DNA of 64,000 bases, taken from NCBI GenBank assembly GCA_963775425.1, contig CAVZJB010000009.1, forward strand, positions 1-64,000. The letters are read 5' to 3'. The stretch comes from an uncultured delta proteobacterium (GTDB taxonomy: Bacteria; Myxococcota; UBA727; VGSZ01). Both the position numbers and the translations under genes were made by a program. Shown here in pieces: positions 5,930 to 36,361 of this stretch; the stretch's first letter is position 1; every line of letters begins with the position of its first letter. The notes under the pieces are model-generated. The model did not search any database, was not told the DNA's origin, and worked only from the letters and a program-made list of their open reading frames with translations.

Positions 5930-5937
5930 ATCATGAC

Positions 5938-7674: not shown

Positions 7675-7907
7675 GATCTGCGTCGCGTTCGCCGACGCCG
7701 GCGGGGCCCCGCCCACCGGCCAAGTCGCGGTAGCCGCGGTGGGCGGCCCGCCGCCCCCGGGGCAGCGGCCCCGATACGCGCCCACGCCGCCCCCGCCCAC
7801 GCTGGCAGTCGCCGCAGCTCGCGTCCAGACGTGGTTCGCCGGCCGCATACACCACCCCAGCAAGACTTCCAGTTGCGTTGATCTGGGAGTCAAACCGCCA
7901 AATTCGC

Positions 7908-16030: not shown

Positions 16031-16666
16031 ATGACTGCGCTCGATAACAAGGACAACAAAGACGGCAACGACGAGCACAAGGACCGCTTGGTCCACGTGT
16101 TCATCAACCGCAAGCGCTTCGACGACCTGAAGCCGGTGCAGACCGGCAAGGCGTTGAAGGAACTCGCGGGCATCCCGCTGACGGACGTGCTCTTCCTCCG
16201 GCAGCCGGGGAAGGACGTGGTCGTCGGCAACGATGAGAAGGTGACGCTGAAGAACGGCGATCACCTCTACAGCCAACCGCCTGCGGACTACGGCAACGTG
16301 TCCCCGCAGGCCGCGAGCGTGCTCGACGGCCTCGAGGGGTTCACGCTGCAGCGGCAGCCGGATGGGTGGACGTTCGCGATCCACGACGCGTATGAGCTGC
16401 CGGACGCCTACGTGCCGCGTGTGGTGCGGTTGCTCGTCAAGTTGCCGCCGACGTTCCCGGATGCGGCGCCGGACATGTTCTTCGTCACGCCGATCTTGCG
16501 CGTGACGAACGGCGCGCCGCCCCGGGGCACGTCGACGACGACCATTCTCGGTCAAGGGTGGCAGCAGTTCAGCTGGCACCTGAAGCCGGGAGCGTGGATG
16601 CCGGGGGTGAGCACGTTCCGCGACTTCATGCGGTGTGTGCGGAGCCGCCTCGAGAAGCGCGACTAG
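16031..16666 (+). CDS. Ubiquitin-like (multi-ubiquitin type) domain fused to a prokaryotic E2 (family E type)
   Basis: Ubl VFINRK...TGKALKELAGI...HLYSQPPADYG, then E2 LPPTFPDAAPDMF...WQQFSWH...W.PG. Confidence 0.85.
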   Translation: MTALDNKDNKDGNDEHKDRLVHVFINRKRFDDLKPVQTGKALKELAGIPLTDVLFLRQPGKDVVVGNDEKVTLKNGDHLYSQPPADYGNVSPQAASVLDGLEGFTLQRQPDGWTFAIHDAYELPDAYVPRVVRLLVKLPPTFPDAAPDMFFVTPILRVTNGAPPRGTSTTTILGQGWQQFSWHLKPGAWMPGVSTFRDFMRCVRSRLEKRD

Positions 16667-16698
16667 GCCGACGAACAACAACAAAGAAGGAGGTGTGT

Positions 16699-18000
16699 AT
16701 GCGACTCAAGGTGAGCGAAGCGGCGTGGAACGCGTTCAGTGATCACCTGCTCGAGCGGACCGACGTCGAGAGCGCGGGCATTGTGCTCGCCCGCGCTCTC
16801 GACGCGGCCGACGGGCCTCTGCTGGTCGCGGACGAGCTGCTCGTCGTCCCCGACGATGGGTATCTCATCCGGCGGTTCGATCAGATTCGGATCGACCCGA
16901 TCGCGATGAACGGGATGACGCAGCGGGCGCGTGACGAGGGCTTGTCGATCTTTACGGTTCACACGCATCCGATGGCCAACGAGGCTTGGTTCTCGTGGGC
17001 CGACGACAACGGCGACAAGCGCTTGATGCCGAGCCTGCACGCGCAGGCGCCAGGTCCGCACGGCTCGATCGTGATCGTGCCCGGCGGCGGCGTGTTGGCG
17101 CGTGCGTTCAACGAGGAGGGGGTGGCGACGTCGGTCGACTTCGACGTCGTCGGGCGCCGTCTGGTTCGTCACCGGCAAGCGCGCGAGCGCGTCGAGGACG
17201 AGCGCTTCGCGCGGCAGGAGCTGGCGCTTGGGCCCGCGGGGCAAACGCGCCTGCGCAGTTTGCGGGTCGGTGTGATTGGGCTGGGCGGCGTCGGCTCGAT
17301 CGTCGCTGCACAGCTCGTGCACCTCGGCGTCGGCGAGCTCGTCTACGTCGACGGCGATGTGGTGTCCGAGTCGAACCTGTCGCGCGTATATGGCGCGCGG
17401 AGGGGCGACGTCGGCGCGAAGAAGGTGGTGGTGGCGGCGCGTTACGCGACGGAGAGCGGGCTACCGGTGGAGGTCGTGACGGTTGACGACCCGCTCGGCT
17501 CGCAGCACGCGGCGTTGCTGCGCTCGTGCGACGTGGTGTTCTCGTGCGTGGACACGCACACGCCGCGGTCGTTGTTGAACGCGCTCGCGTACGAGGCGTT
17601 GGTGCCCGTGATCGATATGGGGACCGCGTTTCGCATCGATGGTGCGAGCGGCGTTATCACGAGCAGCGGCGGTCGCGTCGTGGTGGTGGGGCCGGGTCGC
17701 CCGTGCCTGGGTTGTTGGGGTCACCTGAACGCCGACCGGCTCCGCGAGGAGGCGCTGTCGAGCGCCGAGCGCGCGGAGCTCGGGCGGCAGGGCTACCTCA
17801 GCGGCGCGGACGTGGCGCAGCCGAGCGTCGTGGCATTCAACACGTACGTTGCCGGGGCGGCGGTGATCGAGCTGTTGCGGTTGGTGACCGGGTTCGCCGG
17901 CGCCGACGACCCGCCGAACCGCCTCGGGTTCATGTTTGAGGACGGCAGCGTGACGCGCAACGAGGTGAACGCGCGGGCGTCGTGTCGATGCACGCGATGA
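16699..18000 (+). CDS. JAB/JAMM peptidase fused to ThiF/E1 adenylating domain
   Basis: VESAG...HTHP...FSWAD (E/HxH/S/D); GLGGVGS, DGDVVSESNLSR, CVD, PCLGC; AGGAGG RBS. Confidence 0.9.
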   Translation: MRLKVSEAAWNAFSDHLLERTDVESAGIVLARALDAADGPLLVADELLVVPDDGYLIRRFDQIRIDPIAMNGMTQRARDEGLSIFTVHTHPMANEAWFSWADDNGDKRLMPSLHAQAPGPHGSIVIVPGGGVLARAFNEEGVATSVDFDVVGRRLVRHRQARERVEDERFARQELALGPAGQTRLRSLRVGVIGLGGVGSIVAAQLVHLGVGELVYVDGDVVSESNLSRVYGARRGDVGAKKVVVAARYATESGLPVEVVTVDDPLGSQHAALLRSCDVVFSCVDTHTPRSLLNALAYEALVPVIDMGTAFRIDGASGVITSSGGRVVVVGPGRPCLGCWGHLNADRLREEALSSAERAELGRQGYLSGADVAQPSVVAFNTYVAGAAVIELLRLVTGFAGADDPPNRLGFMFEDGSVTRNEVNARASCRCTR

Positions 18001-18003: not shown

Positions 18004-19122
18004 TCAGCCCTTGGCGTTCTTGCCGAGCTTCACCATGAGCTCGGCACCGAAGCCGGGGCTGACCATCTTTTCTCTGCGCAGGCGACCGACAACGACGCAA
18101 GGATCGACGCCGACGCTGCGCGCGAAGCGAACGACGTCGTCGATCGTCGGAGCCGTGCGTGCGAGAAACATGCGGAGCGCCTTCGGGTCGATCAGCGTGT
18201 CCGTGGCATAGCGGTCGGCTTCGGCTTCTTCGACAGCGACGTCCGGAGCAATATCTTGATCTTCGTCTTCGATGAAGATCGCGCGCTTCGCATGAAAGAG
18301 GATGTGAGCAGCTTCATGGAAGAAGTTGAACCAGAAGATGTCGAGACGGTCCCACAGGAATGTGTTTTGGATGAGCGCCTTGTCCTGTGAGAGCCAACGG
18401 GCCGCAGCCTTGATGCCCGCACCTGGGAATTCCTCGACCATCACGACGACGACGCCGGCCTCGGCGCAGAGACGCTGGATCTCCGGCATGATGTCGGCGA
18501 GCTTCTTCTTCGTGAGCAACGTCTCGCGGATGGTCTTCACTGCGGCGACAAAGCGGTCGCGGTCGTATGGAGCTGGCGCCACTTTCTGCGCCTCAAGCTC
18601 ACCGCTGCGTAGCCACGCGGCGATTTTCCCGTGCTTCTCAGAGACGCTTGGCGTGCGGCGCCACTTCGACTGGTGGTCGATGTACAGCGCCTTCCAATTC
18701 TCGGGGGTCGCCATCCCGAAGAACGACAAGACCTCACGAGCGCGTTCGGCGCGTGTGTGCGTGGGCCTCAGCCACTTTCGCTTGACCATCTCGTTGAGCG
18801 GCAAGCTCCACTTGGCGATTTCGGCGTCGTAGTCGAGGAGGCGCTTGTCTTCCTCTTGGCGCGCAAGCGACTCGCGGTAATTCTGTTCGCGGCTGAGCCA
18901 GAAGCCCGCAGAGGGCTCGCCGAGCACGCGTTCGAGCTCGAGCGCGGTGTCCGGCGTGATCGCTGTCTTGCCCTTGACGATCTCGTTGATGGTTTTCTTG
19001 GGCCGACCCATGCGCTGGGCGAGTTCCGACTGCGTCATGCCGCGTTGATCGAGCAACTCGACGAGCGTCTCGCCGGGGAGCGACACGACGGGCGGCTGGT
19101 ATTTGTTCTTCGTCTCAGTCAT
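18004..19122 (-). CDS. higA: HigA-type XRE antitoxin fused to an ImmA/IrrE Zn metallopeptidase
   Basis: PGETL...MTQSELAQRMGRPKKTINEIVKGK HTH; FWFNFFHEAAH...EAEAD. Confidence 0.88.
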   Translation of the reverse strand: MTETKNKYQPPVVSLPGETLVELLDQRGMTQSELAQRMGRPKKTINEIVKGKTAITPDTALELERVLGEPSAGFWLSREQNYRESLARQEEDKRLLDYDAEIAKWSLPLNEMVKRKWLRPTHTRAERAREVLSFFGMATPENWKALYIDHQSKWRRTPSVSEKHGKIAAWLRSGELEAQKVAPAPYDRDRFVAAVKTIRETLLTKKKLADIMPEIQRLCAEAGVVVVMVEEFPGAGIKAAARWLSQDKALIQNTFLWDRLDIFWFNFFHEAAHILFHAKRAIFIEDEDQDIAPDVAVEEAEADRYATDTLIDPKALRMFLARTAPTIDDVVRFARSVGVDPCVVVGRLRREKMVSPGFGAELMVKLGKNAKG

Positions 19123-19450
19123 CTGCGGTCCCGATTCCAAGCACGCGAACGGTGGTCACCTGGGTCCAGTCGGCGTTGCCGTGAGTCGCGGCCCGGTCGT
19201 CGACGGGCTCGAGGATGAGGCCGTGCGGTGGCTGAACAGCGATGTGGAGACGACCGAGCTTCTCAGCATCACCGGTCAGCGCGCCCGGAATGCCCCGAAC
19301 GTCGCGCAGCGTCGGCGCGGCGCGTAGGTCGTCGAGCCGCCTGCGGATGCATCGGGCCATGTCTTGGCCCCACTTCTTCTTGAGTGCCACGTCGTCGTGG
19401 AAGAGCTGCTCGACTTTGTCCGTCTTGAAGGTGATATCCACGGACATCAT
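19115..19450 (-). CDS. higB: HigB/RelE-family toxin
   Basis: DITFKTDKVEQL...KKWG...IRRRLDDLRAA; lies upstream of and overlaps higA. Confidence 0.78.
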   Translation of the reverse strand: MMSVDITFKTDKVEQLFHDDVALKKKWGQDMARCIRRRLDDLRAAPTLRDVRGIPGALTGDAEKLGRLHIAVQPPHGLILEPVDDRAATHGNADWTQVTTVRVLGIGTADD

Positions 19451-19464
19451 CCGTGTCCACTCTG

Positions 19465-19483
19465 GTTCACGGAAAAGGTGAAC
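19465..19483. promoter_or_regulatory. Palindrome GTTCAC-N7-GTGAAC; candidate HigA operator
   Basis: Directly upstream of higB. Confidence 0.5.
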
Positions 19484-19567
19484 AAGAGGATCGGCTGACG
19501 GCATGGTGGCATAGGGTGACTGATAGCGCACCCATGACCACGCGTCCAATCGCCTGCTGAAGAGCGA

Positions 19568-21484
19568 CTAGACCGCCTCCTCGAAGTGCAACTGCACGTC
19601 GCGATCGAGCCGCGAGCAGTGACGGAGGATCTGCAGCGAGTGCTTCAGCAACTCCGTGTCGCGAGCGACCTCGCTGATCGGTCCGTCCGCAAACTTGCCG
19701 CCGTGGAAGAGGTTGTTCCGCACGCGCCGCACCGCGAGCAGCACGGATACCGAGTCGCCGTCGATACCTCCATCCTTCCACCCGAGCGTGCCGTCGTCCT
19801 TTCTGATTTGCTTCTTCGGCGGGTGATCTCGGAGGTACCGCGCCGCTTCGCCAACGCGCGGGTCGACCGCCGTCGCCGTCGCAAAGTCGGCCTTGATCGC
19901 CTTCGCGAACGCATCCCAATTCGGAGACGCATCGGCAGTATCGTTCAGGTACGTCGCGCTCCTCTTCAGCGCGTACTCGAAGCGTGCAAACGTCGCGAGA
20001 AACTCCAGGACCAGCGCCGGCTCAGCGGTGAAGACGGAGACCACACTCGAAGCCATCGCAGTTCCTGCGACAGCTGCCCCGGTCGTCGGCACCGCGGGAG
20101 GCGCGACCGAGACCGTCGCCGTCACCGCGCCTTCAGTCCGCGTTGTGGCGTTGCCTGTCCCTTCGGCGGTGGTGTTCGGCTGCAGGCGTACGCGCGCGTC
20201 AATCCCGGGCGACGCCGCGTCGGCGGCGAACGGAGCGCCGTCCTCATCGCAGAGCGCGTAGCCCGCGGCATCGATGAGCAACCGCAGCTCGTGGAACCGG
20301 TCCGTCCTCAGCCGGCTGAACTCGCCGAGACCGGCCTTCTTGAGCAACGAACGAATCTCGATCGAGCGCCGGCCGGTGTACTGCGCGAGCTTGTCTTTGA
20401 GGACCGCGACGGGGTCATCCGCCGGATCGGCGGCAGCGGCTTCTTCGCCGCCTCCGTCAGCCGCGCATGCCGTCAGCATGCTCGTGTCCATTCGGCACCA
20501 CGCCGCCGTCGCCGTCGCGCGGAGCTCGTCCGACGACTTCGCCTTCGCGTCCGGCAATCGCCACCAGCCATCGCCGATCGGGAAACCCTCGGTCGAGCCC
20601 AACACATGCGTGAGGTCAGCTTGTCGCAGGTCAGCGATGAGAGCGGCACTGTCGCCGCGGTACGCGTCCGCGAGCTGCTCCTCCATTGCCGCCTTGCTCT
20701 TACGCCGCGCGAGACCACGCGCGTCGCAGAGGGCGACGAGTGAGTCGCGCCCTCCGTCGATCCCAATCCATTCGAGCAAGTCCGAGACGAGCGGCGCATC
20801 GTTGGGCAGACCATGCCGACGTTTCGCTGGGTAGCGAGACACGTCCCCGTTCTCGTCGACGAAGTACAGGTAGCCGGCCTCGCGCCTCGCGCCGGCGTCC
20901 GCGACGAACTCAGCCGGTGCGTCGGCATCGTCGACGGGCGCACGCATGACCTTCCCGTCGTCGAAGTAGTAGATGAACCCATCTTCGCGCTTCACGCCAA
21001 GTGCGCTGACGACCTCAAGCTTTTCGTGATCAACATCCCAGTCTTGAAAGTCGAGGTCGTCGCCCGCTCCTCCGTTGTCGACCAGCTCCGTTGCCTCGTC
21101 GGCTGGGTCATCCGCGAAGTCCTCATCGACCGCGCCACCGAGTGCATCGACCCAAGCCGCAAGACGCTGGCGCGTGGAGAGACCGGCCGCCTCCAACAGA
21201 GCTCTTCGCTCCGTGTCCTCGAGCGCCACTGCGACTGTGTTTAGCTTCCGGCGAAAGCTCTCGGCGAACTTTCCGCGCGCTGCCTCTTCGCCGTCCGGCA
21301 GCGCAACCTCGCCAAGCACCGCAACAAGCCGCCGGAGGGAGCTCACCGGAAGAACGCGCGCGATCTCGTCGATAGGAACCACACGATCGAACAGGTTCTC
21401 GACGTCAAACGGGCGTTCGTCACGACGGTGCTCTTGGCCAACCGCGCCCGGCGCCGGCGGCCACGGGATCTCGAAGAGCCCAAG
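19568..21484 (-). pseudogene. 3' part of an IS66-interrupted ASCH/Cc1-like/HEPN gene
   Basis: Open frame from LGLFEIPW to the stop at 19568; tandem KREDGFIYYFD / RREAGYLYFVDENGDVSR; C-terminal RVRNNLFHGGK. Confidence 0.8.
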
Positions 21485-21553
21485 GTATCCGGCCGGCGAA
21501 CTGCGTCGTGACACCGGGCCTCGCCGCGCGTACCGCGCGCGCGGAGGTGATGC

Positions 21554-21880
21554 ATGGCCAGGGAGTCGAGGGTGGTGTGGGCGCGGCGGGTGGCGCGGTG
21601 GGCGAAGAGCGGCCTGTCGCGCGAGGAGTTCGCGGCGCGTGAGGGCGTGAAGGCGACGACGCTGTCGTGGTGGCGCTGGTACCTGGGCCGCGACGGTGCG
21701 GCGCCAGCGCGGATGCTCGCGCGGCCCGAGCCAGCCTTCGTCGAGGTCGAGCCGGTCGTGGTCGAGGCCGTGAGCGAGCGCATCGAAGTGGCGCTCACCA
21801 ACGGCCGCGTGGTGCGCGTACCGATGACGTTCCGCGACGACGCTCTCGTGCGCGTGCTTGCCGCCGCGGAGTCCCGATGA
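21554..21880 (+). CDS. tnpA: IS66 TnpA
   Basis: Homologous to 5217-5540. Confidence 0.88.
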   Translation: MARESRVVWARRVARWAKSGLSREEFAAREGVKATTLSWWRWYLGRDGAAPARMLARPEPAFVEVEPVVVEAVSERIEVALTNGRVVRVPMTFRDDALVRVLAAAESR

Positions 21881-22269
21881 TCCCGGCCGGCCTGCGCATC
21901 GTCGTCGCGCTCGCGCCGATGGACATGCGGCGCTCGATAGACGGCCTTGTCGCCGCCGTCGCCGACCGGCTCCACCAGGACGCCGCAGTCGCGCGCGTGG
22001 TCTACGCCTTCGCCAACACGCGCAGGGATCGCGCAAAGCTGATCTGGCGCACCGAGCATCAATGGTGCCTGCTGTACACGCGGCTCGACGCCGGCTACCG
22101 CGTGACGCTGCCCGTCGCGCAGGATGGCGTGGCGAGCGTATCGGTCGATGCTCGCCAACTGGCGGCGATCCTCGACGGCGCGAAGAAGCGCGCGACGACG
22201 CGCGAGACCGTTCGCGAGGCGCGCGCGAAGGTGTCGATTTCTTCGCCAAGCTCGTCGACGAGGCGATAG
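21877..22269 (+). CDS. tnpB: IS66 TnpB
   Basis: PMDMRRSIDGL; homologous to 5537-5929. Confidence 0.88.
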   Translation: MIPAGLRIVVALAPMDMRRSIDGLVAAVADRLHQDAAVARVVYAFANTRRDRAKLIWRTEHQWCLLYTRLDAGYRVTLPVAQDGVASVSVDARQLAAILDGAKKRATTRETVREARAKVSISSPSSSTRR

Positions 22270-22277
22270 ATCATGGC

Positions 22278-24017
22278 GTGAACGAGGAGCTCACCGACGT
22301 CAACGTGCTGCGCGCGCGCCACCTCGAGACGGTGGCGATGCTCGAAGCGCTGAAGAAGGCGTACGACAAGCTCCTCTTCGAGCACGAGCTGCTGAAGCGG
22401 CAAGTGCTCGGTCCCAAGGCCGAGCGCGTCAAGAACGCGCAGGCGCAGGCTGAGCTGCCGCTCTTGGAGTTCGTCGCGGCGATCGGCAGGCTTCAGGCCG
22501 GTGACGAGAGCGCTCTCGACGACGCCCAGAGGGCCCTCGACGAGGCGACAGCGGCGCTCGGGGGCGGCGGCGACGACGCGCTAGAGAAGCCGTCGAGGCC
22601 TGGCGGCCATGGTCGCCGCAAGCTCCAGCTCGAGGATCTGCCGCTTCACCGCATCGTGCTGTTGCCGCCCGAGCGACTCGCTCCTGGCGGCGAGAAGCTG
22701 GTGAAGATTGGCGAGGAGGTGACGCAGCTTGTCGAGCGGCAGCCGGCCTCGATCGTGCGCATCGAGGTCGTGCGCGAGAAGTTCGCAGCGCCAGCGGACG
22801 CGGAGGCTACGTCTCCGCCGGCGAGCGCGCCGCCCGTAGCGCCGGAGAGCTCGACGATCGCCGGCGCGCCCCCGCTCGGGCGCGCGCCGCGCGCCGTCTT
22901 CATCGCCGACATGCCGGAGCGCGTGATCCCGAAGGCGATGGTCGAGCCGGGGTTCCTCGCGCACGTGTTGGTGTCGAAGCACTGCGACCACATCCCGCTG
23001 AACCGCCAGGAGGGCATCTTCAAGCGGGAGGGGTTCAAGGTGTCGAGCTCGACTCTCGGCGATTGGGTGGAGGCGTCGACGAACCTGCTTGCCCATGTCG
23101 TCGACGCGATGTGGAAGGACGCGAAGGAGAATGCGTCGTACTGCATCGTCGACGCGACCGGCGTCTTGGTGCAGGCGAAGGGCGAGTGCCAGCGCGCGCA
23201 CTTCTACGTCGCTGTCGTACCGCAAGAGCACGTGCTGTTCCGCTTCACTCGGAAGAACGACGGGCCGACCGTCGCGGCGCTGTTCGAAGGCTTCAAGGGC
23301 CACGTCCACGCCGACGCGGCGACCGTCTACCACGAGCTCTACCGGCGCGAGCTTCAGCACCTCACCGAAGTCGGATGTTGGGCCCACACGCGGCGGAAGT
23401 TCTTCGATGCGCTGTCGCGCGATCGGGAGCGCGCGCTCGTCGGCATCGGGTACATCAGCCACCTCTATGACGCCCACCGCGCAACGCTCGACAGCGACGG
23501 GGTCGCCGACACGAAGAGGCGCGCCGAGCTCGCTCGCCCCATCCTCGCGAAGCTCTTGTGGTGGGCGCGCCGCGAATTCCGCGCGGTCGCGCAAGGCACG
23601 CCGATCCATCTCGCCCTCGGCTACCTTGTCCGCCAAAGGCGCGCGTTGCTTCGCTTCCTCGACGACGGGCGCATACGCCTCGACACGAACCCCGCCGAGC
23701 TTGCGCTACGGCGCGAAGCCGTGGGACGGAAAAACTGGATCTTCGTCGGCAGCGACAACGGCGCGAAGTGGAACACGATCGCCGTGTCGCTCATCGCGAG
23801 CTGTCAGATGCATGGCATCGAGCCGTGGGCGTACCTGCGCGATGTCCTCACGCTGCTGCCCTCGTGGCCCCACCAGCGTGTGCTTGAGCTCGCACCGAAG
23901 AGCTGGCGGACGACGCTCGCGACGTCCGAGGTGCAGGAACGGCTCGCCACGCTCCGGCTGATCGACCGCGCCACGCCAGTGCGGCCGACTGACGCCATCG
24001 CCGCCGTCGACCTATAG
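22278..24017 (+). CDS. tnpC: IS66 transposase TnpC
   Basis: GCWAHTRRKF, GRKNWIFVGS; homologous to 5938-7674. Start approximate. Confidence 0.93.
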   Translation: MNEELTDVNVLRARHLETVAMLEALKKAYDKLLFEHELLKRQVLGPKAERVKNAQAQAELPLLEFVAAIGRLQAGDESALDDAQRALDEATAALGGGGDDALEKPSRPGGHGRRKLQLEDLPLHRIVLLPPERLAPGGEKLVKIGEEVTQLVERQPASIVRIEVVREKFAAPADAEATSPPASAPPVAPESSTIAGAPPLGRAPRAVFIADMPERVIPKAMVEPGFLAHVLVSKHCDHIPLNRQEGIFKREGFKVSSSTLGDWVEASTNLLAHVVDAMWKDAKENASYCIVDATGVLVQAKGECQRAHFYVAVVPQEHVLFRFTRKNDGPTVAALFEGFKGHVHADAATVYHELYRRELQHLTEVGCWAHTRRKFFDALSRDRERALVGIGYISHLYDAHRATLDSDGVADTKRRAELARPILAKLLWWARREFRAVAQGTPIHLALGYLVRQRRALLRFLDDGRIRLDTNPAELALRREAVGRKNWIFVGSDNGAKWNTIAVSLIASCQMHGIEPWAYLRDVLTLLPSWPHQRVLELAPKSWRTTLATSEVQERLATLRLIDRATPVRPTDAIAAVDL

Positions 24018-24122
24018 AGCCGTGCCGTGGCCGCCGGCGACCGCGGGGAGCCGGAGCCGCCCCCCGCCCATTGCTGGCGCTTTCTACGGCGCCCGTCACC
24101 ACGTGGTTCGCCGGCCGCATAC

Positions 24123-24444
24123 GCCCAAGCGTCCCCTTCCACGGAACGAAGGGAACCCGCCGCGGGTTCGCGACCACCCAGTGCCACACATCGTCGCCCT
24201 CGCCTGCCCAAGGGCTCCGGTAGCGCTGAACACAGTCGACGAGGTCGACGATGCCAACGACGCCGCCGAGCTCCCACTCGTGGTTCGGCCCGTAGGCTTT
24301 CCTCAGGAAGGGCCCATGCCGCAGCGTCACGCCTGCGTGGATGAGAAGGGGGCCGCGGTACTTGGTCGACCACGAGCGGTTCTCCACGTCCTTCCCGCGC
24401 ATGATGAAGTCCGCCCACGGCTGCTGAACAGAGAGTGCTTTCAT
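24123..24444 (-). pseudogene. 5' part (ASCH domain) of the IS66-interrupted gene
   Basis: MKALSVQQPWA...GKDVENRSW...RGPLLIHAG is an ASCH signature; rejoins in frame as PWKGTLG-LFEI once the IS is removed. Confidence 0.88.
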
Positions 24445-24459
24445 CCGATCCCCCAATAG

Positions 24460-24597
24460 TCACGAGTACCGCAGAAGTGCCGCTTCGTGCGCCGCCCGCA
24501 CAGCAGCCCGGAGCGACTTAGGCTTGACGACCTCGACGTTCGCCCCGAAGCCGAGAATCCATGCTCGTAGAACCTGCGTCTCGGGCACGCGCGCCTT
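24460..24597 (-). pseudogene. 3' remnant of a WYL-domain regulator (WCX tail)
   Basis: Manual translation KARVPETQVLRAWILGFGANVEVVKPKSLRAAVRAAHEAALLRYS*; cut by the adjacent element. Confidence 0.78.
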
Positions 24598-24661
24598 TGA
24601 GCGTGCTCTCGTTTTCTGAGGGGCCGCCGATCACGTTTTGAGCGGGGCGCGCCGCGTCACG

Positions 24662-24925
24662 TCAGAACGGGTCGCCCCACCCGATGGCGGTGGCGCGGTA
24701 GCGGCGGAGGAGCGCTTGGAGGGCCTCGGTCTGCCTGAGGATGGCCTCAGCGAGGATCTCGCGCCGGTCGAGGCTGTTCCTGAATTCGGCGTCGGCGGCC
24801 GCGGGGTTTGCGGCGAGGAGCGCGAAGGCGGCGGTGTGGAGGGCGTGGTCGAGCACGGAGAGGGCGGCGCACTCCGGTGCGCGAGCGATCTCCGGCGGGG
24901 TGGGCGCAGGATTGGGGCAGGTCAT
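24662..24925 (-). CDS. Small helical hypothetical protein of the element
   Basis: MTCPNPAPTP...LRRYRATAIGWGDPF; starts 2 nt after the ATPase stop. Confidence 0.6.
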   Translation of the reverse strand: MTCPNPAPTPPEIARAPECAALSVLDHALHTAAFALLAANPAAADAEFRNSLDRREILAEAILRQTEALQALLRRYRATAIGWGDPF

Positions 24926-24927
24926 GA

Positions 24928-25767
24928 TCACTTCCTCTTGTTGGCTGCGGTCTTCTTGGCGACGGGCTTCTCGAAGGCCTCGAGGAAGAGCTTCTCGTCG
25001 AGCCGCTGGGCGCCGGTGTCGGCGCCGATGGCCAGGAGCTCGTCGGCGAGGTTCATGAGGATGCGGTAGTTGCCGGCGGCGTGGTCGGCGAGGGTGGCCT
25101 TGAGCTCGGTGGTCATGAGCGTGGGGTTGCCCGCGGTCTCGAGGAGGTGGTCGAGGCAGGCGAGGAGCTCGTCTCGGGGTGCGTATTCGAGGACGAGGCG
25201 CCGGCGGATGCGGCTTCCAAGCGGGAGCAGCTCCGGGGAGCGGAAGCGCTCCGGCAGCCGCTGGTCGCCGGCGAAGACGACGCAGAGGAGCTGGCGGGAG
25301 TCGAGGTCCTTGCTGGCGAGGACGCGCAGCTCGTTGAAGACGGTGGTGAGGGTCTCCTGGGCCTCGTCGATGACGAGGACGGGACGCATGAGCGTGGTGG
25401 TGATGTGCTCGTGCCAGCGCGCGCGCAGCGCCTTGAAGCCCGCCCATCGGTTGTGGGACTGGAGCGGCACGCCGAAGAGGTCTCCAACTTCGCGGTAGAA
25501 GTCCATGGTCCGGGACTGCGGGTGCTCGACGATGCCGACGACGACGTCGCGGATCTCCTCGAGCCGCTTCTTCAACAGCCGCAGGGCGACGCTCTTCCCG
25601 GTCCCGGGCTCGCCGGTGATCATCACGTAGCCGCCGTCGGCGATGCCGAGCTCGACGCGTCGCAAGAACGCGTCGACGGCAGGCGTCGTGTAGAGCGCCT
25701 CGATGGGCACGTCGGGTCGAAAGGGGTGGAACTTCAGCCCGTAGGTCTGCAGGAGCTTGTTCTTCAT
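24928..25767 (-). CDS. ExeA-family AAA+ ATPase (transposition helper)
   Basis: YGLKFHPF, GEPGTGKS, LVIDEAQ. Confidence 0.88.
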   Translation of the reverse strand: MKNKLLQTYGLKFHPFRPDVPIEALYTTPAVDAFLRRVELGIADGGYVMITGEPGTGKSVALRLLKKRLEEIRDVVVGIVEHPQSRTMDFYREVGDLFGVPLQSHNRWAGFKALRARWHEHITTTLMRPVLVIDEAQETLTTVFNELRVLASKDLDSRQLLCVVFAGDQRLPERFRSPELLPLGSRIRRRLVLEYAPRDELLACLDHLLETAGNPTLMTTELKATLADHAAGNYRILMNLADELLAIGADTGAQRLDEKLFLEAFEKPVAKKTAANKRK

Positions 25768-27236
25768 TCGTGGTCCTCGTCGTTGTCGTCGTCGCTATCT
25801 TTGGGGATGTAGGCGGGCGGCAAACCGGTGGCGGCGTAGTCCGCCATGAGCCTCTTCAAGAGCGGCGCGATCCCGGCCGGCGCCGGCGGGAGCGATGGCG
25901 GATCGGCCGAGAGCGCCCGGCGCCCACCGGCAGCGTTCTTGTGTTTGTCGAGCGGCAGGAGTGTGGTGAGGTGCTTGCCGGTGCGGTGGTCGACGAGGTC
26001 GATGCTCGACAGGTCCCACCGAGCGACGCGCACGCTGGGGCGCAGCAGGGTGCGGTAGGTGGAGGGGATCTCGAAGCGGACGCCCTCCACGGTGATGGTG
26101 CCGTCGCTTCTGCGCTGCGTGCGCCGCACCTCCATGCGGAAGGCGCGGCGGAGCTCGTCACTCGAGGGGCACGGCCGCCCGAGGTCAGGGCCCCGCAAGA
26201 ACCGCTCGAGCGGCGTCTCGCCGATCTCGTCGTGCCTCTTCCGGTTGTACTCGCCCTCGACCCACGCCTGGGTGGCGCGGTTGAGGAGCTCGAGGGTGAG
26301 CTCCTTTTCGCCCTCGAGCATCGCCATGAGGCGGGCCTCGACCTGGCCCCAGAAGGACTCCTGCTTGCCGTTCTGCTCCGGCGTCTCGGGCAGCGTCGTG
26401 TGGTGCGTGATCGAGAGGCGCTCGAGCCCCTGCGCGCTCTCGGCGGCGAGGAACGCCTTGCCGTTGTCCGAGAGCAGCGCCCGCGGCAGCCCGCGCTTCA
26501 TGAGCGCCTGGCTGAAGCCGTGTACGAAGGACTCAGCCTTCTCCTCGCCGAGGTACCACTGCAGGTGGCAGCACAGCCGGGAGTGATCGTCGAGGACGCC
26601 GAACGCCACCGGCTTCTGCCACTCGCCGCTCGGCAAGAGCACCTTGCGCTTGCACTCGTGGAAGTCCGTGTGCCACAGCGCGTTCGTGTGCTCCACCTCG
26701 AACGAGCGGCGCTCCCTGGGAACGAAGGAGGGATCAGCCTCGTGTCGACGAGCCCGGCGGGCCTTCTGGAGGCCGTTGCGCTTCATGTACCGGCAGACGC
26801 TCGCGTAGCCCGGCAGGGGCACGAGCGTCGCGTCCTCCGCCGCGAGCGCCTTCAGGTTGTCGAAGACGAGCTGGAACGTCCAGCGTGGGTGCTGCTTGCG
26901 GAGGAGCCTGATCTTCGCGGCGACGGCCACGGAGATACTCGGCTGCGTACCCGCGTGCCTGGGCACCCTGCGCTCGAGCGCCTTGATCGGGTCCGGCTCG
27001 TCCTTGGCGGTGTAGTACCAGCGCTCGATCGTCTTCGGGCTGAAGCGGATGGTTTCGCCGGTCGTCGGGTGACGCCAAGGCTTGTTGGCGAGAGCCTCGA
27101 TGCGTGCCCAGAGCTCGCCGGCCTCCGCGGGCGCGCTCAGGAGCGGCCCGATGATCGCAAAGCGCAAGCGTGCCCAGCGCACGCGCGGCGGCGTGTCGTT
27201 GTCGTTGGCCATGGGGATCTCCGTCGGGCGCGACAT
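25764..27236 (-). CDS. DDE integrase/transposase (IS481/Mu-like)
   Basis: LWHTDF, LDDHSR, SDNG, NGKQES. The start may be 27213. Confidence 0.9.
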   Translation of the reverse strand: MSRPTEIPMANDNDTPPRVRWARLRFAIIGPLLSAPAEAGELWARIEALANKPWRHPTTGETIRFSPKTIERWYYTAKDEPDPIKALERRVPRHAGTQPSISVAVAAKIRLLRKQHPRWTFQLVFDNLKALAAEDATLVPLPGYASVCRYMKRNGLQKARRARRHEADPSFVPRERRSFEVEHTNALWHTDFHECKRKVLLPSGEWQKPVAFGVLDDHSRLCCHLQWYLGEEKAESFVHGFSQALMKRGLPRALLSDNGKAFLAAESAQGLERLSITHHTTLPETPEQNGKQESFWGQVEARLMAMLEGEKELTLELLNRATQAWVEGEYNRKRHDEIGETPLERFLRGPDLGRPCPSSDELRRAFRMEVRRTQRRSDGTITVEGVRFEIPSTYRTLLRPSVRVARWDLSSIDLVDHRTGKHLTTLLPLDKHKNAAGGRRALSADPPSLPPAPAGIAPLLKRLMADYAATGLPPAYIPKDSDDDNDEDHE

Positions 27237-27283
27237 CTACCCGACCGAGCACGCTCTCGAGAAATGCCAACTTCTGCGCGAGC

Positions 27284-27868
27284 TCAGCCGGCCCGCAGGA
27301 AACGTGGCGCATCGGGGCACGACTGCGTCGTCACCGGCGCCAGGAGCTGCGCCGCCGTCACCATCACCCGCTCGACGTCGAGAGGGCCCAGCGCCTGCGC
27401 GAGACGTTCGAGGAGCGACTTCGGCAGCTCAGCCCCGGCAGGCGGTGGCGGCGCGAACCGAGCCCGCAGCTCCGTCCACGTTGGCAGCGCCGGGAAGATC
27501 ACCTGCCACCAGCCGAGCCACCGCCGCACCGTCCGCACGGGCACCCCTGCCGCCGTCACGCTGCCGCAGAGCGCCCACAGGCTGGCCAGGAGCACCACGG
27601 CACCAAGGTAGACCCGCCGCCCCAGGAACCTCACCGACGGCGGCTGAGTACGTCGACGGCACGCACCGCAGCAGAGGCTGAACCGCACGTTGAACGCCTC
27701 GCCCGCGGCCGCCACCAGCGCACCCCGCGGCTTCCTCGGGTAGTCCCCCCGGTGCAGCGGCCCCTCGCACCGCCGGCATCCTGCTGCCGCAACGGCCTGG
27801 GTGATCTGTCTGTCCATCTCCACGAGCAAGGCGAAGAACTCGGCGCCGAACATCGCTCCGTGCCACAC
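27284..27868 (-). CDS. Zn-finger/HTH accessory protein of the element
   Basis: CRRC...YPRKPRG...CCGACRRR...RTVRRW. Confidence 0.7.
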   Translation of the reverse strand: MWHGAMFGAEFFALLVEMDRQITQAVAAAGCRRCEGPLHRGDYPRKPRGALVAAAGEAFNVRFSLCCGACRRRTQPPSVRFLGRRVYLGAVVLLASLWALCGSVTAAGVPVRTVRRWLGWWQVIFPALPTWTELRARFAPPPPAGAELPKSLLERLAQALGPLDVERVMVTAAQLLAPVTTQSCPDAPRFLRAG

Positions 27869-29390: not shown

Positions 29391-31979
29391 ATGCACGTCG
29401 TCTTTGATCTCGACTTTGATGAAGGCAGCTGGCCGGGGCCATCCGATCAGGGGGCGACCGTTGGCGAAGCTTGGCTTGGTCCGAACGGCTTGGTGTCCAG
29501 GCTCGAGCTCTCGCTCGGGCTCAACGGGATCTTCCCGACCAAAGCTCAGCGTGTAGCTTGTCTTGTTTCGCGTTTGGGGAAGCCCGGGTTTTGGTCCGGA
29601 TCGGCGTTGGTCGATCCGATCGGCACCGCAGTCCGTCTGCTCGACTGGCGCGACGACCTCTGGAGCCATGGCTGGCGAGGGCAAAAGACGGGCGCCCAAC
29701 GTCTCGATGCGATCGCTGAGCTAGCCGGCGATATCAACGGAGGAGCACCGGACCGACTCTCGTCGATCACGAACACGCTCGATCGACGCAGGACGGACGT
29801 CACGAAGATCGAGCTCGGAACCCCTCGGGAACATCTTCCTGCGATCTGGCGAGAAGTCCTGACGAAGCTCGCCGACCGTCGCGTCATGGTCCGCGATGCT
29901 GCGTTCCGGCCCGCGTCATCGACGGGCAACCTTGCAAACGCGCGTCGCGACGGCTTTCAACCGTCCTTCTCCGACCCAAGCCTTCAACTCCTTCGGCCGC
30001 CGGGTCCTCTCGCCGCCGCCGAGCTCGTCGCGGCCTACCTTGCCAGCGTCAACGACGCGTCGACCACGGTGGTCGTCGGTGGCGACCCGATTCTCGACGA
30101 GGCCATGCGACGGTTTGCCCGACCCACGGCGGGCGCCTGCTACCCGGCCCAAGAGAACGCTCTGACGCAGCTCCTCGGCAACGTGTTGGAACTGGCGTGG
30201 TCGCCCGTGCACCCCGATCGGGCCTTCGAGCTTCTTTCACATCCCGATGGACCGATCCCGGCGGTCTGTGCGCGGCCCCTTCGTCGCGCCCTTCAAGAGT
30301 GGCCGTCAACGACAGCGTCGACGTGGATGCAGGGCCTCGAGGACGCATTGGCCGCAATCGACGACCTGAAGCGCCGAGCCGATATCCGCCAACGCATTGA
30401 GACCTTCTTCACGCCGGCGAGCTCGGCGGAGGTGGGCCTCAACCAACTCGAGCCGCGCGTGGTGGCGCTTCAACATTGGCTTCGGGCGCGTGCCGCCACG
30501 TCGACGACACCCGACGACTACCTGGCTGCCGCAGCGCAATCGACTTCCTTCCTTGAGCTCGTTCGCGCGAGCGGCCTTGCTGTCCTCACCAAGACACAGG
30601 CGCGACAGATGGTGGCGCTCGCATCGCCGTCTAAGGGGACGAGTCGCTTTCCCGCTGAGGCTCATCTCCACTCTGTGGGACAGCCAGGCGGCGTCGCCGC
30701 ACCGGCTGACAGAATTGTCTGGTGGAACTTCACGGAGGTGGCCGGCGCTCGCCTGCCGACCGCGTCTCTCACAAACACAGAACGCGCCAGCCTCAAGAGC
30801 ATCGGCGTGAGCGTGCAGACGAGAGGTGATGCAGCGCAACGCGCCGCACATCGCTATAAGCGGCCGCTTTGGCGCGCGAACCGCACGCTCCTCCTCGTGT
30901 GCCCCGAGGTTGGGGTTGACGGGGAGCAGGTCCATCCGCATCCGCTCTGGGATGAAATCACGGCGCGGCTCGTGCGCAGCGACGACCGACGAGCGCTGCT
31001 CAGAACCGCTCCGGTTTTGGAGTCTGAGCTTTCTCAGTCGGCACGCCCGCGAGCAGCGGTGGTCGCCCCGCGACGAGCGTGGTCGGTGCCGGCAGGCACG
31101 GTTGGAGCGCGGCCCAAGGAGTCCCCGTCGAGCATCGGCACGCTTGTGGGGTGTCCCCTCCGTTGGGCGCTCACCTACCACGCGCGGCTGAGCAACGCTC
31201 CGGCGGCAGCTGCGAGAGTCGACGGACGGCTCTACGGCCTCATCGCGCACGAACTCCTTGCAGAGCTAGGGCGCAGCGGATCGTTCTCGTTGGCGAACAT
31301 CACTGACGTCGCACGGCAGCTTTTCGATAAACGCGTCGGCGACCTTGCGTCGGCGCTCTTCCTCCCAGGCGCACACCATGAACGAGCGCAACTGCGAGAG
31401 GTGATCGCTGCAGCAGCAACGCGGGTCGGCGCCCTCGTCCAGAAGCACGGATTCACCGTCGTCGAGGTCGAGACGGAGAGAAGCCGCACCATCGCGTCCA
31501 TTCCTCTTACCGGCACGCCTGATCTGGTGCTCCGCGCTCCAGGCGGAACTTCCGTCGTCGTCGACTTCAAGTGGGGTGGGGAGAGCGTCCATCGCGAAGC
31601 GCTGAAGAACGGTGCCGCTCACCAATTGGCCGCGTACGTCGAGCTCGTCGCCGACGGCGGTGGCCCACGACCAGCGGCGGCCTACTACGTGCTCCGTGCG
31701 CAGCGCATCATCGCGGACACGATCGGTTTGTTGCCCGACGCCGAAGAGCTCGCGTTCGTCAGCAGCGCTGATTGCTGGGACGCGACGGTGAAGGCGTACG
31801 ACGAGGCGATAGCTGGATTCTCAACCGGCGTCTGCGCGTCTGGGGTTGCAGACGAAGCGCACCAAGACCTCCCCGAACGCGGCGAGATCGTGGATGGGCG
31901 GCTGAGCCTGCCCGCGCCGTGCGGTTTCTGCGATTTCCATCATCTCTGCGGACACGCCCAGCAGCAGGGGCAACGCTGA
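29391..31979 (+). CDS. AddB-like protein: inactive helicase scaffold plus PD-(D/E)XK nuclease with Fe-S cysteines
   Basis: SPSS...GCP, GTPDLV...VDFK...QLAAY, PCGFCDFHHLC. Confidence 0.85.
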   Translation: MHVVFDLDFDEGSWPGPSDQGATVGEAWLGPNGLVSRLELSLGLNGIFPTKAQRVACLVSRLGKPGFWSGSALVDPIGTAVRLLDWRDDLWSHGWRGQKTGAQRLDAIAELAGDINGGAPDRLSSITNTLDRRRTDVTKIELGTPREHLPAIWREVLTKLADRRVMVRDAAFRPASSTGNLANARRDGFQPSFSDPSLQLLRPPGPLAAAELVAAYLASVNDASTTVVVGGDPILDEAMRRFARPTAGACYPAQENALTQLLGNVLELAWSPVHPDRAFELLSHPDGPIPAVCARPLRRALQEWPSTTASTWMQGLEDALAAIDDLKRRADIRQRIETFFTPASSAEVGLNQLEPRVVALQHWLRARAATSTTPDDYLAAAAQSTSFLELVRASGLAVLTKTQARQMVALASPSKGTSRFPAEAHLHSVGQPGGVAAPADRIVWWNFTEVAGARLPTASLTNTERASLKSIGVSVQTRGDAAQRAAHRYKRPLWRANRTLLLVCPEVGVDGEQVHPHPLWDEITARLVRSDDRRALLRTAPVLESELSQSARPRAAVVAPRRAWSVPAGTVGARPKESPSSIGTLVGCPLRWALTYHARLSNAPAAAARVDGRLYGLIAHELLAELGRSGSFSLANITDVARQLFDKRVGDLASALFLPGAHHERAQLREVIAAAATRVGALVQKHGFTVVEVETERSRTIASIPLTGTPDLVLRAPGGTSVVVDFKWGGESVHREALKNGAAHQLAAYVELVADGGGPRPAAAYYVLRAQRIIADTIGLLPDAEELAFVSSADCWDATVKAYDEAIAGFSTGVCASGVADEAHQDLPERGEIVDGRLSLPAPCGFCDFHHLCGHAQQQGQR

Positions 31980-31980
31980 G

Positions 31981-34900
31981 ATGAAGAACATCCAGATCAT
32001 CTCGGCGTCGGCCGGCAGCGGAAAGACGACGAGGCTCGCCCGCGAGCTTGAGAACGCCGTGTCCGTGGGAGGTGTTAGCCCCGATTCGATCCTTGCCACG
32101 ACGTTCACTCGCAAAGCTGCATCAGAGCTCTTGGAACGCGGCCGAACGGTGCTGCTTGCTGCCGGCCGCGTCGATGAAGCAGAGCGCTTCGGTGCGGCGC
32201 GAATCGGCACGGTCAACGCGGTCTGCGGCCGGTTGGTCGCCGACTTTGCCTTTGAGCTCGGCGTGTCACCGGACCTCGAGGTGCTCGACGAGAAGAGAGC
32301 TGGCGAGTCGTTCAAGCGCTGCCTCAGCGACGTCGTCACAAAGCAGGAGCTTGCGCGCCTTACGGAAATCGGAACGCGCTTTTACGAGTTCGATTGGCAG
32401 CACGCCGTGCAACGGCTCGTGGAGCTGGCGCGAACGAATGGGATCGCTGTCGAGGAGGTTCCTGTCTCGAAGGCGAGCTCGACTTCTCGGCTACCAAGCG
32501 CTGCTCGGTACAGCGGAGCCGGACGGCATCGCCATCGACGCAGCCCTTGTCGAGGCGCTTGAGGGCTTCATTGCGGGCGTGGAAGCGAACCAGGTATCCG
32601 GCGTCGACGCTACCAGCGGGACCGCCGAGGCTTTGGCGGAAGCCCGGCGCTCCCTGAACGACATGCGAGCCCTGGGCTGCCAGGAATGGCGCCGATGGGT
32701 GAAGCTCGCGAAGCTGCAGACGCGCAAAAAGTCGGAGCATCTCTTGCCCCCGCTGCACGAGGCTGCGCTGCGGGTGCACTCGCATCCGGCGCTGCATGCA
32801 GACGCGCGGGACGCCATCGAGATCGTGTTCGACGTCGCTGCGCGAAGTCTGGCTGCGTACAGCGCGTACAAGAACGAGCGACGCGCGATGGACTTCGTTG
32901 ACCAGGAAGCGCTCGCTCTTCGCCTTCTGCGATTGCCTCCAGTCGCAGAGCAGTTGCGCGAGGAGATCTCGCTCGTCTTGGTGGATGAGTTTCAGGACAC
33001 GAGCCCCATTCAGCTCGCGATCTTTCTCGAGCTCGCCGGCATCGCGAAGAAGAACATCTGGGTCGGCGATCAGAAGCAAGCCATCTACGGATTTCGCGGC
33101 ACCGATCCCGCCTTGATGGATGCCGTCGTCATCGAAATCCTCGGCGACGCCGAGCCCATCACGCTGTCGACGTCTTACCGAAGTCGGCCGGCGCTGGTGA
33201 AGCTGACCAGCGAGGTCTTCTCGAAAGCGTTCTCGCTGCAGGGCCTTCCCGAAAGCCGCGTGCGACTCACGCCGGGAAACCCGCAAGAGGCGGCAGGGCT
33301 CGGGCCTATCGTTGAGAGATGGACGCTGGGGAGCAAGAACCAGGAAGCCGATGCGCGCGCCCTTGCCGGCACCCTGCGATCGTTTCTCGCCGATGACGAT
33401 GTTCGTATCCGCGACCGTGGTTCGAACGCAGCCCGCAAGATCCGCCCGCTCGACACCGCCGTTCTCTGTCGGCGGCGAGCGATGTGCGCGCTGGTCGCTG
33501 CGGAGCTCGCAGCCGCTGGCGTTGCTGCGGTGTTGCCGCGGACCGGCTTGCTGCGTACGCCCGAAGGTCGGCTCCTGCTCGATGGCCTTCGCCTCTGGGC
33601 AGATCCTGACGATGCCCTCGCGGCTGCCGAGGTTGCCCGGTTCGTCTCCCTGGTGGACGACGCTGACGGTTGGCTCCTCACCGCATTGCAGAACCCCTAC
33701 GGCCAGAAGTTCCGGGAAGCGGAGCCCGTGGCCACGGTACTCGCTGTTCGCGCGGCAAAGCCCCACCTCGGTCCCCTGTCGGCTACGGACGAGGTCATGA
33801 CTGCGCTCGGGATTCGCGAGCTGTGCCTTCGCTGGGGGAATGCCGCCCAGCGGTTGGGCAACCTGGATGCCTTTCGTGCACACGTCGTCGCGTTTGCCGC
33901 GCGTGCGAGCGAAGACGGCATCGCGGCCACAGTCTCGAGTCTGGTGAACGACCTCGCCCGGCTCGAAGAGGAGGACGAGGACTCGCAAGCCGTCGTTGGC
34001 TCAGCGGACGCCGTCACGGTGACGACGTGGCACGCAGCCAAAGGCCTCGAGTGGCCGGTGACTGTTCTTTTTCAGCTCGAGAAGGATCCGATCGTCGCAT
34101 CTTTGGGTGTCCACGCCGACGCAACAACAGCGGCGGTCAACTTCACCGATCCGCTGGCCGGCCGACGTGTCCGATTCTGGCCGAACCCCTTCCATCCAAA
34201 CCAGACCGACACGCCGTTTCACGAGCGTCTCTCACAGACCGAGGAGCACCTGCGCGCGGAAGCGCGTGAGCAAAGCCAGGAGCTTCGGCTCTTGTACGTC
34301 GGGTGGACGCGAGCGAGAGACCGCGTGGTGCTGGCCGGCCGCGGGAGCCTGACCGCTGGCATCCTCGGGTTTCTTCGCGACGCGAACGGGCCGTTGCTGG
34401 TTGCTCCGAAGCCCACAGCAGACATTGGACCCGCGAGTGACGTCGTGTGGGCCGGGGAGGCAGTTGCGCTCCGTGAGCGTATGGCCGCCGTCGACTCTGC
34501 AGAGACAGCCGAGCTCGCGCTCGAAGTCGCGTTCGATGCGCCAGCTCCAAGGCTGTACGCGCCTGCTTTTCTCGCGCCGTCATCGATCGCAACCGAAGGC
34601 ACGAATTCGCCACCCATCGTCATCGGTCAGCCAGTGCCGCTCCCGGGCGACCTCGACATGGCGGCGCTGGGAAATGCGCTCCATGGCTTCTTTGCCGCCG
34701 ACCTGCCCGGCCTTACAGCCGAAGGACGCGTCGAGCTCGCTGCGGAGCTGCTGCGCAACTGGCGCGTCGGTGAAGCACTGGACCCCAACAGCGTCGTCAC
34801 CATGAGCGATCGCTTGCGGACGTTCGTGAACGGGCGTTGGCCCAATTGCGCTTGGCATCGAGAGTGGTCGGTCGAACGCGTCCTCGATGGCGGCACCCGA

Positions 34901-35140
34901 CTTCGCGGGGCGGCCGATCTGGTTCTTGAAACCACAGATGGCTTCGTCGTCATCGACCACAAGAGCTATCCGAACCCGGGCGGAGCTGAAGAGCACGCAC
35001 GAGCCTTTGCAGGGCAACTCCACGCTTACGCCGGTGGCATTGAAGCCGCGCGGAAGCGACCCACCCTCGCCACTCTCGTGCACTTCCCCGTCGCCGGTCT
35101 CATGGTGCCGGTCGGCCTCGCGGCCGTGGTGGCTCCATGA
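31981..35140 (+). CDS. AddA/UvrD-like SF1 helicase-nuclease (one frameshift near 32480)
   Basis: ASAGSGKT, TFTRKAA, VDEFQD, VGDQKQAIYGFRG, HAAKGLEW, LYVGWTRAR, ADLV...IDHK...QLHAY across two frames. Confidence 0.88.
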
Positions 35141-35772
35141 GGACCACTCCATCGACGTCGTCCAAGAAGGGGCCGGTCTACAGCGCCGACATCACCAAAG
35201 GCGCGTTGATGATCCCCGAGAGCCGCGTCGTCGCCAACGTCTTGCTGCAGTCGCCGCAGCTCTCGTCCGCAGAGTGGGAGGCGCAGGTTGTGCGGGAGAA
35301 CATGTTGCAGAAGCGAAGCCCGGTGACAGCGCGCAGCCGCGCACGCTACCTGCGCGCCCGACTCTCGGTGGGCCCCGCGACGTTGCTTCCGCTGTTGGCG
35401 CGGGGCGATACTGAGCTCGCTGCACAAGCCGCCATGGCGCTTGCCATCAAACACAGCCGCCTCCTCGGCGACTACCTCGACCAGGTCGTGAGGCTTCAGC
35501 GGCTTCGCCAGCAACCCTCGCTCGTCGCGAAGGATTGGGCCGCCTTCCTCGACAACGCGGAAGGCTACGCGCCCGAAGTGCATGCATGGAGCACCTCCAC
35601 CCGGCAGAAGCTGGGGCAGGTTGTACACCAGGCGATGAGCGAGGCGGGCTATCTCGCCGACACGAAGTCCAAGCGCCTGCAACCCGTTCGAGTGCGCGCC
35701 GAGATCAGGCGTGTGCTCGACGATGCGCGAGAGGAATACGTGCTGCGATGTCTGGGGGTTGCGGAAGCATGA
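35137..35772 (+). CDS. brxA: BREX protein BrxA (DUF1819)
   Basis: YSADITKGALMIPESR...ENMLQKRS...WSTSTRQKL...EAGYL; operon position. Confidence 0.9.
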   Translation: MRTTPSTSSKKGPVYSADITKGALMIPESRVVANVLLQSPQLSSAEWEAQVVRENMLQKRSPVTARSRARYLRARLSVGPATLLPLLARGDTELAAQAAMALAIKHSRLLGDYLDQVVRLQRLRQQPSLVAKDWAAFLDNAEGYAPEVHAWSTSTRQKLGQVVHQAMSEAGYLADTKSKRLQPVRVRAEIRRVLDDAREEYVLRCLGVAEA

Positions 35773-36350: not shown

Positions 36351-36361
36351 GTGGGGAATTC

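Follow-up and report, generated by a model that had tools for sequence, protein, structure and literature searches.

The window analysed here is a 64,000-nucleotide stretch of an uncultured delta proteobacterium of the Myxococcota (contig CAVZJB010000009.1, positions 1 to 64,000), and it contains a minus-strand gene that codes for a single modular protein of 743 residues and is split by an insertion element of the IS66 family. The copy of the gene in this genome is probably inactive. In our best explanation, to which we assign a probability of roughly 0.6, it is a dead single-chain sensor-RNase defence protein of a Myxococcota defence island, with a swappable C-terminal module. The N-terminal ASCH domain, and perhaps the central beta repeats too, would sense nucleic acid or a phage-induced change; sensing would release a C-terminal HEPN-type RNase, and RNA cleavage would give a defence of the abortive-infection type, until two transposons inactivated the gene and its regulator. 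A type 1 BREX locus, GmrSD, a PD-λ-2-like gene pair and a JAB-E1 fusion in the same window provide the defence setting. An earlier interpretation of this DNA, made from the sequence alone and referred to here as the original prediction, had likewise proposed an inactivated sensor-to-RNase effector; it is partly supported, all of its sequence-level statements having stood.

All positions are window coordinates. The listing of open reading frames (ORFs) shows two separate minus-strand ORFs (23848..24456 and 19568..22249) rather than one gene, as the original prediction had pointed out. When 24444-24123 was joined to 21477-19568 by script, removing the IS66 element and one GCCCAAG copy, a frame of 322 + 1910 = 2232 nt was obtained, which comprises 743 codons and a terminal stop with no internal stops, whereas join offsets that are not multiples of three give 9-16 stops. 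The peptide across the junction is PWKGTLGLFEIPW. The N-terminal fragment (24123..24444, minus strand; translation P0001, 107 aa) carries the ASCH domain and consists of codons 1-107 and the first base of codon 108, and the C-terminal fragment (19568..21477, minus strand; translation P0002) contributes 635 codons and the stop. The insertion point, at codon 107/108, lies inside the ASCH domain, and both halves are otherwise open. P0002 contains, in order, a helical region, a tandem beta repeat, two further conserved modules, a T/A-rich linker and a HEPN-like domain; the two repeats VKREDGFIYYFD and ARREAGYLYFVDENGDVSR and the motif RNNLFH (19703-19720) are present as originally described.

That this join is biologically right follows from the intact 854-residue protein P0004, which aligns across the junction. 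P0004 was the only whole-protein relative among the matches listed in a protein search over 5.8 billion clusters, in which at most 8,000 candidates were taken up. Its residues 1-105 match the N-terminal fragment at 79% identity, the C-terminal fragment is matched from residue 107 on (107-554) at 52% identity, and a single BLASTP stretch pairs residues 1-547 of the joined protein with P0004 1-554 at 57% identity. The predicted 2232-nt frame is thus borne out both by the script join and by BLASTP, and a chance ORF in GC-rich DNA is ruled out because the homology to P0004 crosses the junction.

The interrupting element is 2,638 bp long (21485..24122, plus strand) and has the transposase, inverted repeats and target duplication of the IS66 family. 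Pfam identified DDE_Tnp_IS66 (E 1.1e-61) and the IS66 C-terminal element (E 8.7e-11), and the 28-nt terminal inverted repeats at 21485-21512 and 24095-24122 are 86% complementary. The flanking copies of GCCCAAG (21478..21484 and 24123..24129) are an exact 7-bp match, with the eighth base differing on either side; target duplications of IS66 elements are usually 8 bp. The genome holds a single 100% copy of the element, with relatives of 84% identity at window positions 5147-7706 and at two contig ends. Further mobile DNA was found at 845-2386, 5147-7850 and 52217-52281, namely a Mu-type transposase, the second IS66 relative (84%) and a lone IS66-type end, so that insertions are numerous throughout the island.

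For the N-terminal fragment, the original assignment as ASCH was confirmed: a comparison of P0001 with PDB sequences returned the ASCH chains of human ASC-1/TRIP4 (PDB 8yxw, 8yew, 2e5o and 9kyk) with E 1.5e-8 over residues 4-97, which amounts to sequence homology over almost the whole domain. The Pfam ASCH model scores P0001 below its cut-off (19.1 bits against 21.2, E 0.0022), and a relative encoded on metagenome contig L094 scores above it (37.4 bits, E 4.4e-9; ASC-1 chains E 2.3e-12). By sequence, then, the N-terminus is a true ASC-1-type ASCH domain, here in a bacterial protein of a different architecture. Readers of the PUA-like group (ASCH, EVE, SRA, YTH) that are fused or linked to nucleases are a known theme of type IV restriction-like defence. 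The present protein resembles this theme in combining an N-terminal ASCH domain with a predicted nuclease in one chain, encoded by a defence-island gene, and departs from it in that the predicted nuclease is HEPN-like, of the RNase type instead of a DNase, and in having four further conserved modules between reader and effector. The combination of ASCH and HEPN-like domains can accordingly be regarded as a variation on a known reader-plus-nuclease defence theme.

Whole-protein relatives are very rare. A scan of genome contigs found none, a metagenome scan found one, on contig L094, and an order-wide six-frame search, whose counts are a floor owing to a stricter first look, found the full protein in one genome only (G000). 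A second protein search with residues 150-330 listed only the repeat-bearing proteins P0220 and P0221, and not P0004. The proteins represented by P0002 and P0004 have in common the ASCH domain, the region that follows it, a linker rich in acidic residues, the repeats and another pair of modules, of which P0004 has the second in duplicate. The family-specific region after the ASCH domain (21122..21433, minus strand; P0002 residues 15-118) is kept in all three relatives and was called helical from its sequence pattern; it aligns with a stretch of P0004 that in turn aligns with the L094 protein. The latter (259 aa) is 48% identical to P0004 1-217 and has nothing beyond the helical region but an acidic tail. 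Neither the C-terminal fragment as a whole nor any of its parts (the region after ASCH, the repeats, modules 1 and 2, and the C-terminal domain) has a match in Pfam, NCBIfam or PADLOC. Weak internal BLAST similarity connects HeH/SAP-like 'LLxxAGL' motifs at P0002 residues 92-126, 248-282 and 373-426 (E 4e-4 and 0.019, without composition correction); at this strength the motifs are not claimed as a HeH/SAP domain.

Beyond a T/A/P-rich linker the two long proteins diverge completely. P0004 has no similarity to P0002 past residue ~488, and its last ~110 residues contain no Rx4H motif and match no family. Because P0004 carries a different C-terminal domain after a similar low-complexity linker, the C-terminus looks like an exchangeable effector module, and the architecture suggests a platform in which the ASCH domain, the repeats and the other modules carry a swappable C-terminal module.

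The C-terminal domain itself (P0005, 171 aa; 19571..20083, minus strand) belongs to a large family. When 1.84 billion representatives were searched exhaustively with HMMER, 1,618 cluster representatives were obtained at E<=0.001, of which 872 reach E<=1e-10, and 145 of the 149 non-self family proteins listed are 136-222 aa long. In an alignment of 98 sequences, F32, E36, R122, H127 and L145 are invariant, and K40, N123, N124, L125, F126, G128, G129 and K130 are at least 90% conserved, so that the conserved columns spell RNNLFHGGK together with an Ex3K motif (E36, K40). The AlphaFold2 model computed with the family alignment is helical, with a predicted local distance difference test score (pLDDT) of 88.8. 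It consists of a helix at 22-41 that bears Ex3K, three short helices and a hairpin (56-103), a helix at 111-127 that ends in RNNLFH, a loop (128-138) and a final helix (139-156).

These features resemble the hallmarks of the HEPN superfamily as given by Anantharaman et al. 2013 (PMC3710099): a four-helix up-and-down core, an Rx4-6H motif at the end of core helix 3 and the start of the loop to helix 4, a polar residue after the arginine (in most cases N, D or H), a further acidic position in helix 2, usually within Ex3[KR], and inserts between helices 2 and 3. In P0005, R122 and H127 are invariant with N123 conserved in at least 90% of the 98 sequences, residues 122-127 close the helix 111-127 of the predicted model, helices and a hairpin are inserted ahead of that helix, and the gene lies in a defence island. 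On these sequence hallmarks the C-terminal domain is likely to be a HEPN-type RNase, predicted to be metal-independent. It differs from described members in lacking a Pfam HEPN match, in the weakness of its structural matches and in having no MNT partner among the 106 adjacent ORFs scanned at the family's loci.

The claim of a HEPN domain in the original prediction is supported at the level of the Rx4H and Ex3K sequence motifs; searches aimed at the fold gave no significant match. The PDB sequence search with P0005, as a single sequence and as a profile, found nothing significant, and Foldseek with the P0005 model returned no match at E<=0.001. Weaker hints do point to HEPN. One profile hit, to a CRISPR-associated protein, aligns on RNsvaHGG with an E of 0.62, and HEPN proteins account for 9 of the 50 best VIA rows. 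Alignment with hhalign to a 12-sequence alignment of Swt1-type HEPN domains placed the motif helices in register with a probability of 57.6% over 39 columns. Weak HEPN_Swt1 matches in 3 of 98 family members, and pEK499_p136 and MtlR as the nearest named ESM clusters, add to these hints.

Several observations weigh against the sensor-RNase reading. The invariant E36 is carried by the model's first long helix (22-41), whereas PMC3710099 places the corresponding residue in helix 2. No Pfam, NCBIfam or PADLOC model matches P0005, and the weak HEPN_Swt1 matches are confined to 3 of the 98 family members (best E 0.031). The fusion of a HEPN-like domain to this architecture was seen in this genome only. 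The repeat domain is net acidic (K+R 11, D+E 15), which disfavours plain nucleic-acid binding. Finally, an intact homologue adjoining a gene for a WYL-type regulator, of which a stump precedes the present gene, was not found; the locus covered is that of the L094 relative, with none within 1.4 kb upstream.

The weak fold evidence leaves some room for a C-terminal domain that is helical and non-catalytic, akin to the MtlR branch, in which case the protein would be a nucleic-acid- or chromatin-associated regulator rather than a toxic effector. MtlR (0.76) is one of the two nearest named ESM clusters to P0005, the other being pEK499_p136 (0.77), and the central domain has among its relatives a conserved small protein with a lysine-tailed paralogue (P0006). 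According to PMC3710099, however, non-catalytic HEPN branches have lost the motif wholly or partly, while in the P0005 family all 98 aligned sequences keep both the R and the H of Rx4H, with a polar N after the R, and the family occurs among Abi, restriction-modification (RM) and Shedu-type genes. We therefore regard a non-catalytic domain as very improbable.

The relatives of P0005 are almost always stand-alone proteins. In a genome scan, 513 of 590 pattern matches were confirmed as family members, and all of the best 80 loci, which were kept, are stand-alone ORFs of 145-258 aa by our ORF calls. They have no constant partner gene, the largest neighbour cluster being present at 5 of the 80 loci. 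At 26 of the 80, an adjacent same-strand ORF carries a Pfam domain of the Abi, Shedu, SIR2, TIR, RES, RM or a similar type; this grouping of defence types is our own and covers the 106 same-strand ORFs that were scanned with Pfam, 48 of the 154 neighbours being left out as lying on the opposite strand. In the present gene, an in-frame ATG (20056-20054) with AGGA six bases upstream (20054..20066, minus strand) stands where the stand-alone homologues start, and M10 of P0005 falls in a nearly invariant alignment column. Judging from this sequence arrangement, a stand-alone HEPN-like product might be made from the internal ATG and survive the IS66 insertion.

The 743-residue frame could accordingly be the outcome of accidental read-through between two genes, in which an upstream gene running from ASCH to module 2 lost its stop, while the HEPN-like part still functions as the usual ~160-aa stand-alone protein, translated from a start of its own; the insertion may then not have silenced the HEPN-like part. 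Besides the internal start, the short lengths of the family proteins, the stand-alone state of every kept locus and the 40-residue T/A-rich stretch before the ATG speak for this. On the other side, there is no stop between 21477 and 19568, so that translation from the ASCH start would include the HEPN-like domain, and P0004 independently continues in one frame through a similar low-complexity linker into a different C-terminal domain. In addition, four of the homologues listed carry the domain genuinely fused to N-terminal regions of other kinds, DUF6884 being one example. Taken together, we consider read-through improbable. In one of the fusions, P0054 (650 aa; DUF6884 domain, E 3.6e-21), the HEPN-like domain is likewise at the C-terminus, another sign of a mobile module.

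The P0005 family is large and unnamed, with no Pfam, NCBIfam or PADLOC model, although the papers cited here may list it under another label. With at least 1,618 clusters of ~160 aa proteins, it is a candidate for a new family of stand-alone anti-phage RNases. As the gene copy is dead here, the value of the locus would lie in pointing to this HEPN-like family and to the beta-repeat domain rather than in providing a working system.

The tandem beta-repeat domain (20816..21028, minus strand) was confidently predicted to form six strands, in two three-strand repeats. Foldseek gave nothing useful for the model, and no solved look-alike was found. Over their full length, the repeats align with proteins of 76-129 aa, mostly 77-81 aa, that form one family. 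A search for this 77-aa family returned 64 matches, all named 'hypothetical' and several from metagenome-assembled genomes (MAGs) of Deltaproteobacteria, and the identity of the family to the window's domain is 32-42%. On this sequence evidence, the central domain is a homologue of these 77-aa proteins of Myxococcota. The genome encodes two paralogues, P0007 (80 aa) and P0006 (125 aa, with a lysine-rich tail), and the repeat region was matched in at least 22 of 38 genomes of the order. The tandem unit is also present in P0220, where it is N-terminal, and in the TPR protein P0221, where it is C-terminal. It is a new small domain that a conserved Myxococcota protein of small size has in common with several larger ones.

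The paralogue loci are G000 C12:27660-28076 (L003) and C16:1100337-1100552 (L002). The tail of P0006 is histone-H1-like, and an adjoining ORF resembles, by eye, DNA polymerase III delta-prime. Among Myxococcota MAGs, 62 of the 63 non-self matches of the small repeat family are 61-88% identical to P0007; the small family has no Pfam model and no solved look-alike.

The original prediction had likened the repeats to the archaeal chromatin protein Cc1, and no support was found for this link. As described in PMC4200833, CC1 is small and rich in beta structure, has a basic character and occurs in a few Crenarchaea. The comparison, which is one by description, finds a small beta-rich unit in both cases, yet CC1 is basic and the present domain net acidic; there is no solved look-alike, and none of the 13 related genome loci is from Thermoproteales, 12 belonging to Myxococcota/Deltaproteobacteria MAGs and one to a Methanosarcinales archaeon. 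A different role for the repeats, as an integrated copy of the host 77-aa protein that serves as bait, so that binding of a phage factor that targets the host protein releases whichever effector the C-terminus holds (here the HEPN-like domain, in P0004 a different one), is a long shot; if true, it would be the bacterial equivalent of plant immune receptors with an integrated decoy.

Upstream of the gene, a remnant of a WYL-type regulator is found at 24460..24612 (minus strand). It is a WCX tail of ~50 codons (Pfam WCX E 1.9e-11, profile positions 36-76 of 76) whose stop codon precedes the ATG at 24444 by 15 bp, and an in-frame stop lies upstream of the remnant. The WYL regulator of the original prediction is therefore present as the WCX tail 15 bp upstream, but not as an intact regulator with HTH, WYL and WCX domains in one protein, since the stump consists of the WCX part alone; PF13280 has no match in the window, and its three matches in the genome are all on other contigs. 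The truncated regulator gene adjoins a second transposon (24662..27868, minus strand, the span being as annotated from ORFs) with an rve transposase (25764-27236, E 2.3e-8), an AAA_22 ATPase (24928-25767, E 6.3e-21) and two small ORFs without a family match (24662-24925 and 27284-27868). This element, which is single-copy in the genome, appears to have truncated the regulator gene, and we infer that the split gene was once controlled by a WYL-type regulator.

The type 1 BREX locus of the window (BrxA, BrxB, BrxC, PglX, PglZ and BrxL), followed by GmrSD and a Cas_NE0113-like gene, extends over 35137-51531 and raises the alternative that the gene is a BREX accessory. The ASCH-helical module would then read DNA or RNA modification, the WCX stump would be a BrxR-like remnant, and the HEPN-like domain would act as a back-up effector. 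The BREX genes are ~10 kb from the gene, and the short ASCH relative on L094 points in the same direction: within L094 1434-5202, its 259-aa ORF is directly upstream of a 202-aa ORF, a BrxA-like ORF (E 1.5e-4, under the cut-off), BrxB (E 4.1e-21) and a P-loop ORF read as BrxC-like (no Pfam match), all on the same strand. The L094 gene is thus a candidate ASCH accessory linked to BREX. A recent survey (PMC12839542) reports that stand-alone HEPN RNases act next to BREX as back-up effectors and that BREX-related systems contain fused ASCH/PUA reader modules. Against this, the present gene is on the opposite strand from BREX, with a transposon, an FHA gene and two AddAB-like genes in between; the BREX-linked relative is a single case (1 of 1 metagenome locus), and defence genes cluster regardless of function. 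We judge an accessory role unlikely, though the possible BREX link, through a short ASCH relative directly upstream of brxA/B/C-like genes, is of interest in itself.

The two AddAB-like genes are large (29391-35137, PD-(D/E)XK and UvrD helicase) and end exactly at the brxA start on the same strand. PglX was read as three ORFs (40065-41294, 41275-42840 and 42976-43686) and BrxL as two (46422-47048 and 46945-48477), a fragmentation due either to decay by frameshift or to errors in the assembly.

Downstream of the split gene lies the PD-λ-2 A/B-like pair (18004..19549, minus strand), which consists of a 144-aa ORF (19115-19549) and a gene for a HigA-type helix-turn-helix (HTH) and M78 peptidase fusion (18004-19140; PADLOC PD-Lambda-2_B E 2.9e-32, TIGR02607 HigA E 1.1e-14, Pfam HTH_3 and Peptidase_M78). 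The 144-aa ORF overlaps the start of the HTH-M78 gene and has no match in PADLOC, Pfam or NCBIfam. According to Vassallo et al. 2022 (PMC9519451), PD-λ-2 comprises three genes, a HigB-like A, an Xre-peptidase B and C. The pair shares with it the HigA-type HTH-peptidase fusion and the small gene overlapping its start, and differs in that the small gene does not match PD-Lambda-2_A and no candidate for the third gene (C) follows on the same strand; no sign was seen that the pair works together with the ASCH gene. Converging on this pair is a gene (16558-18000) for a fusion of a JAB/MPN domain and a ThiF-type E1 (ThiF 3.8e-37, Prok-JAB 5.7e-6; PADLOC E1-E2 and BilD match), possibly a component of a defence system based on ubiquitin-like conjugation.

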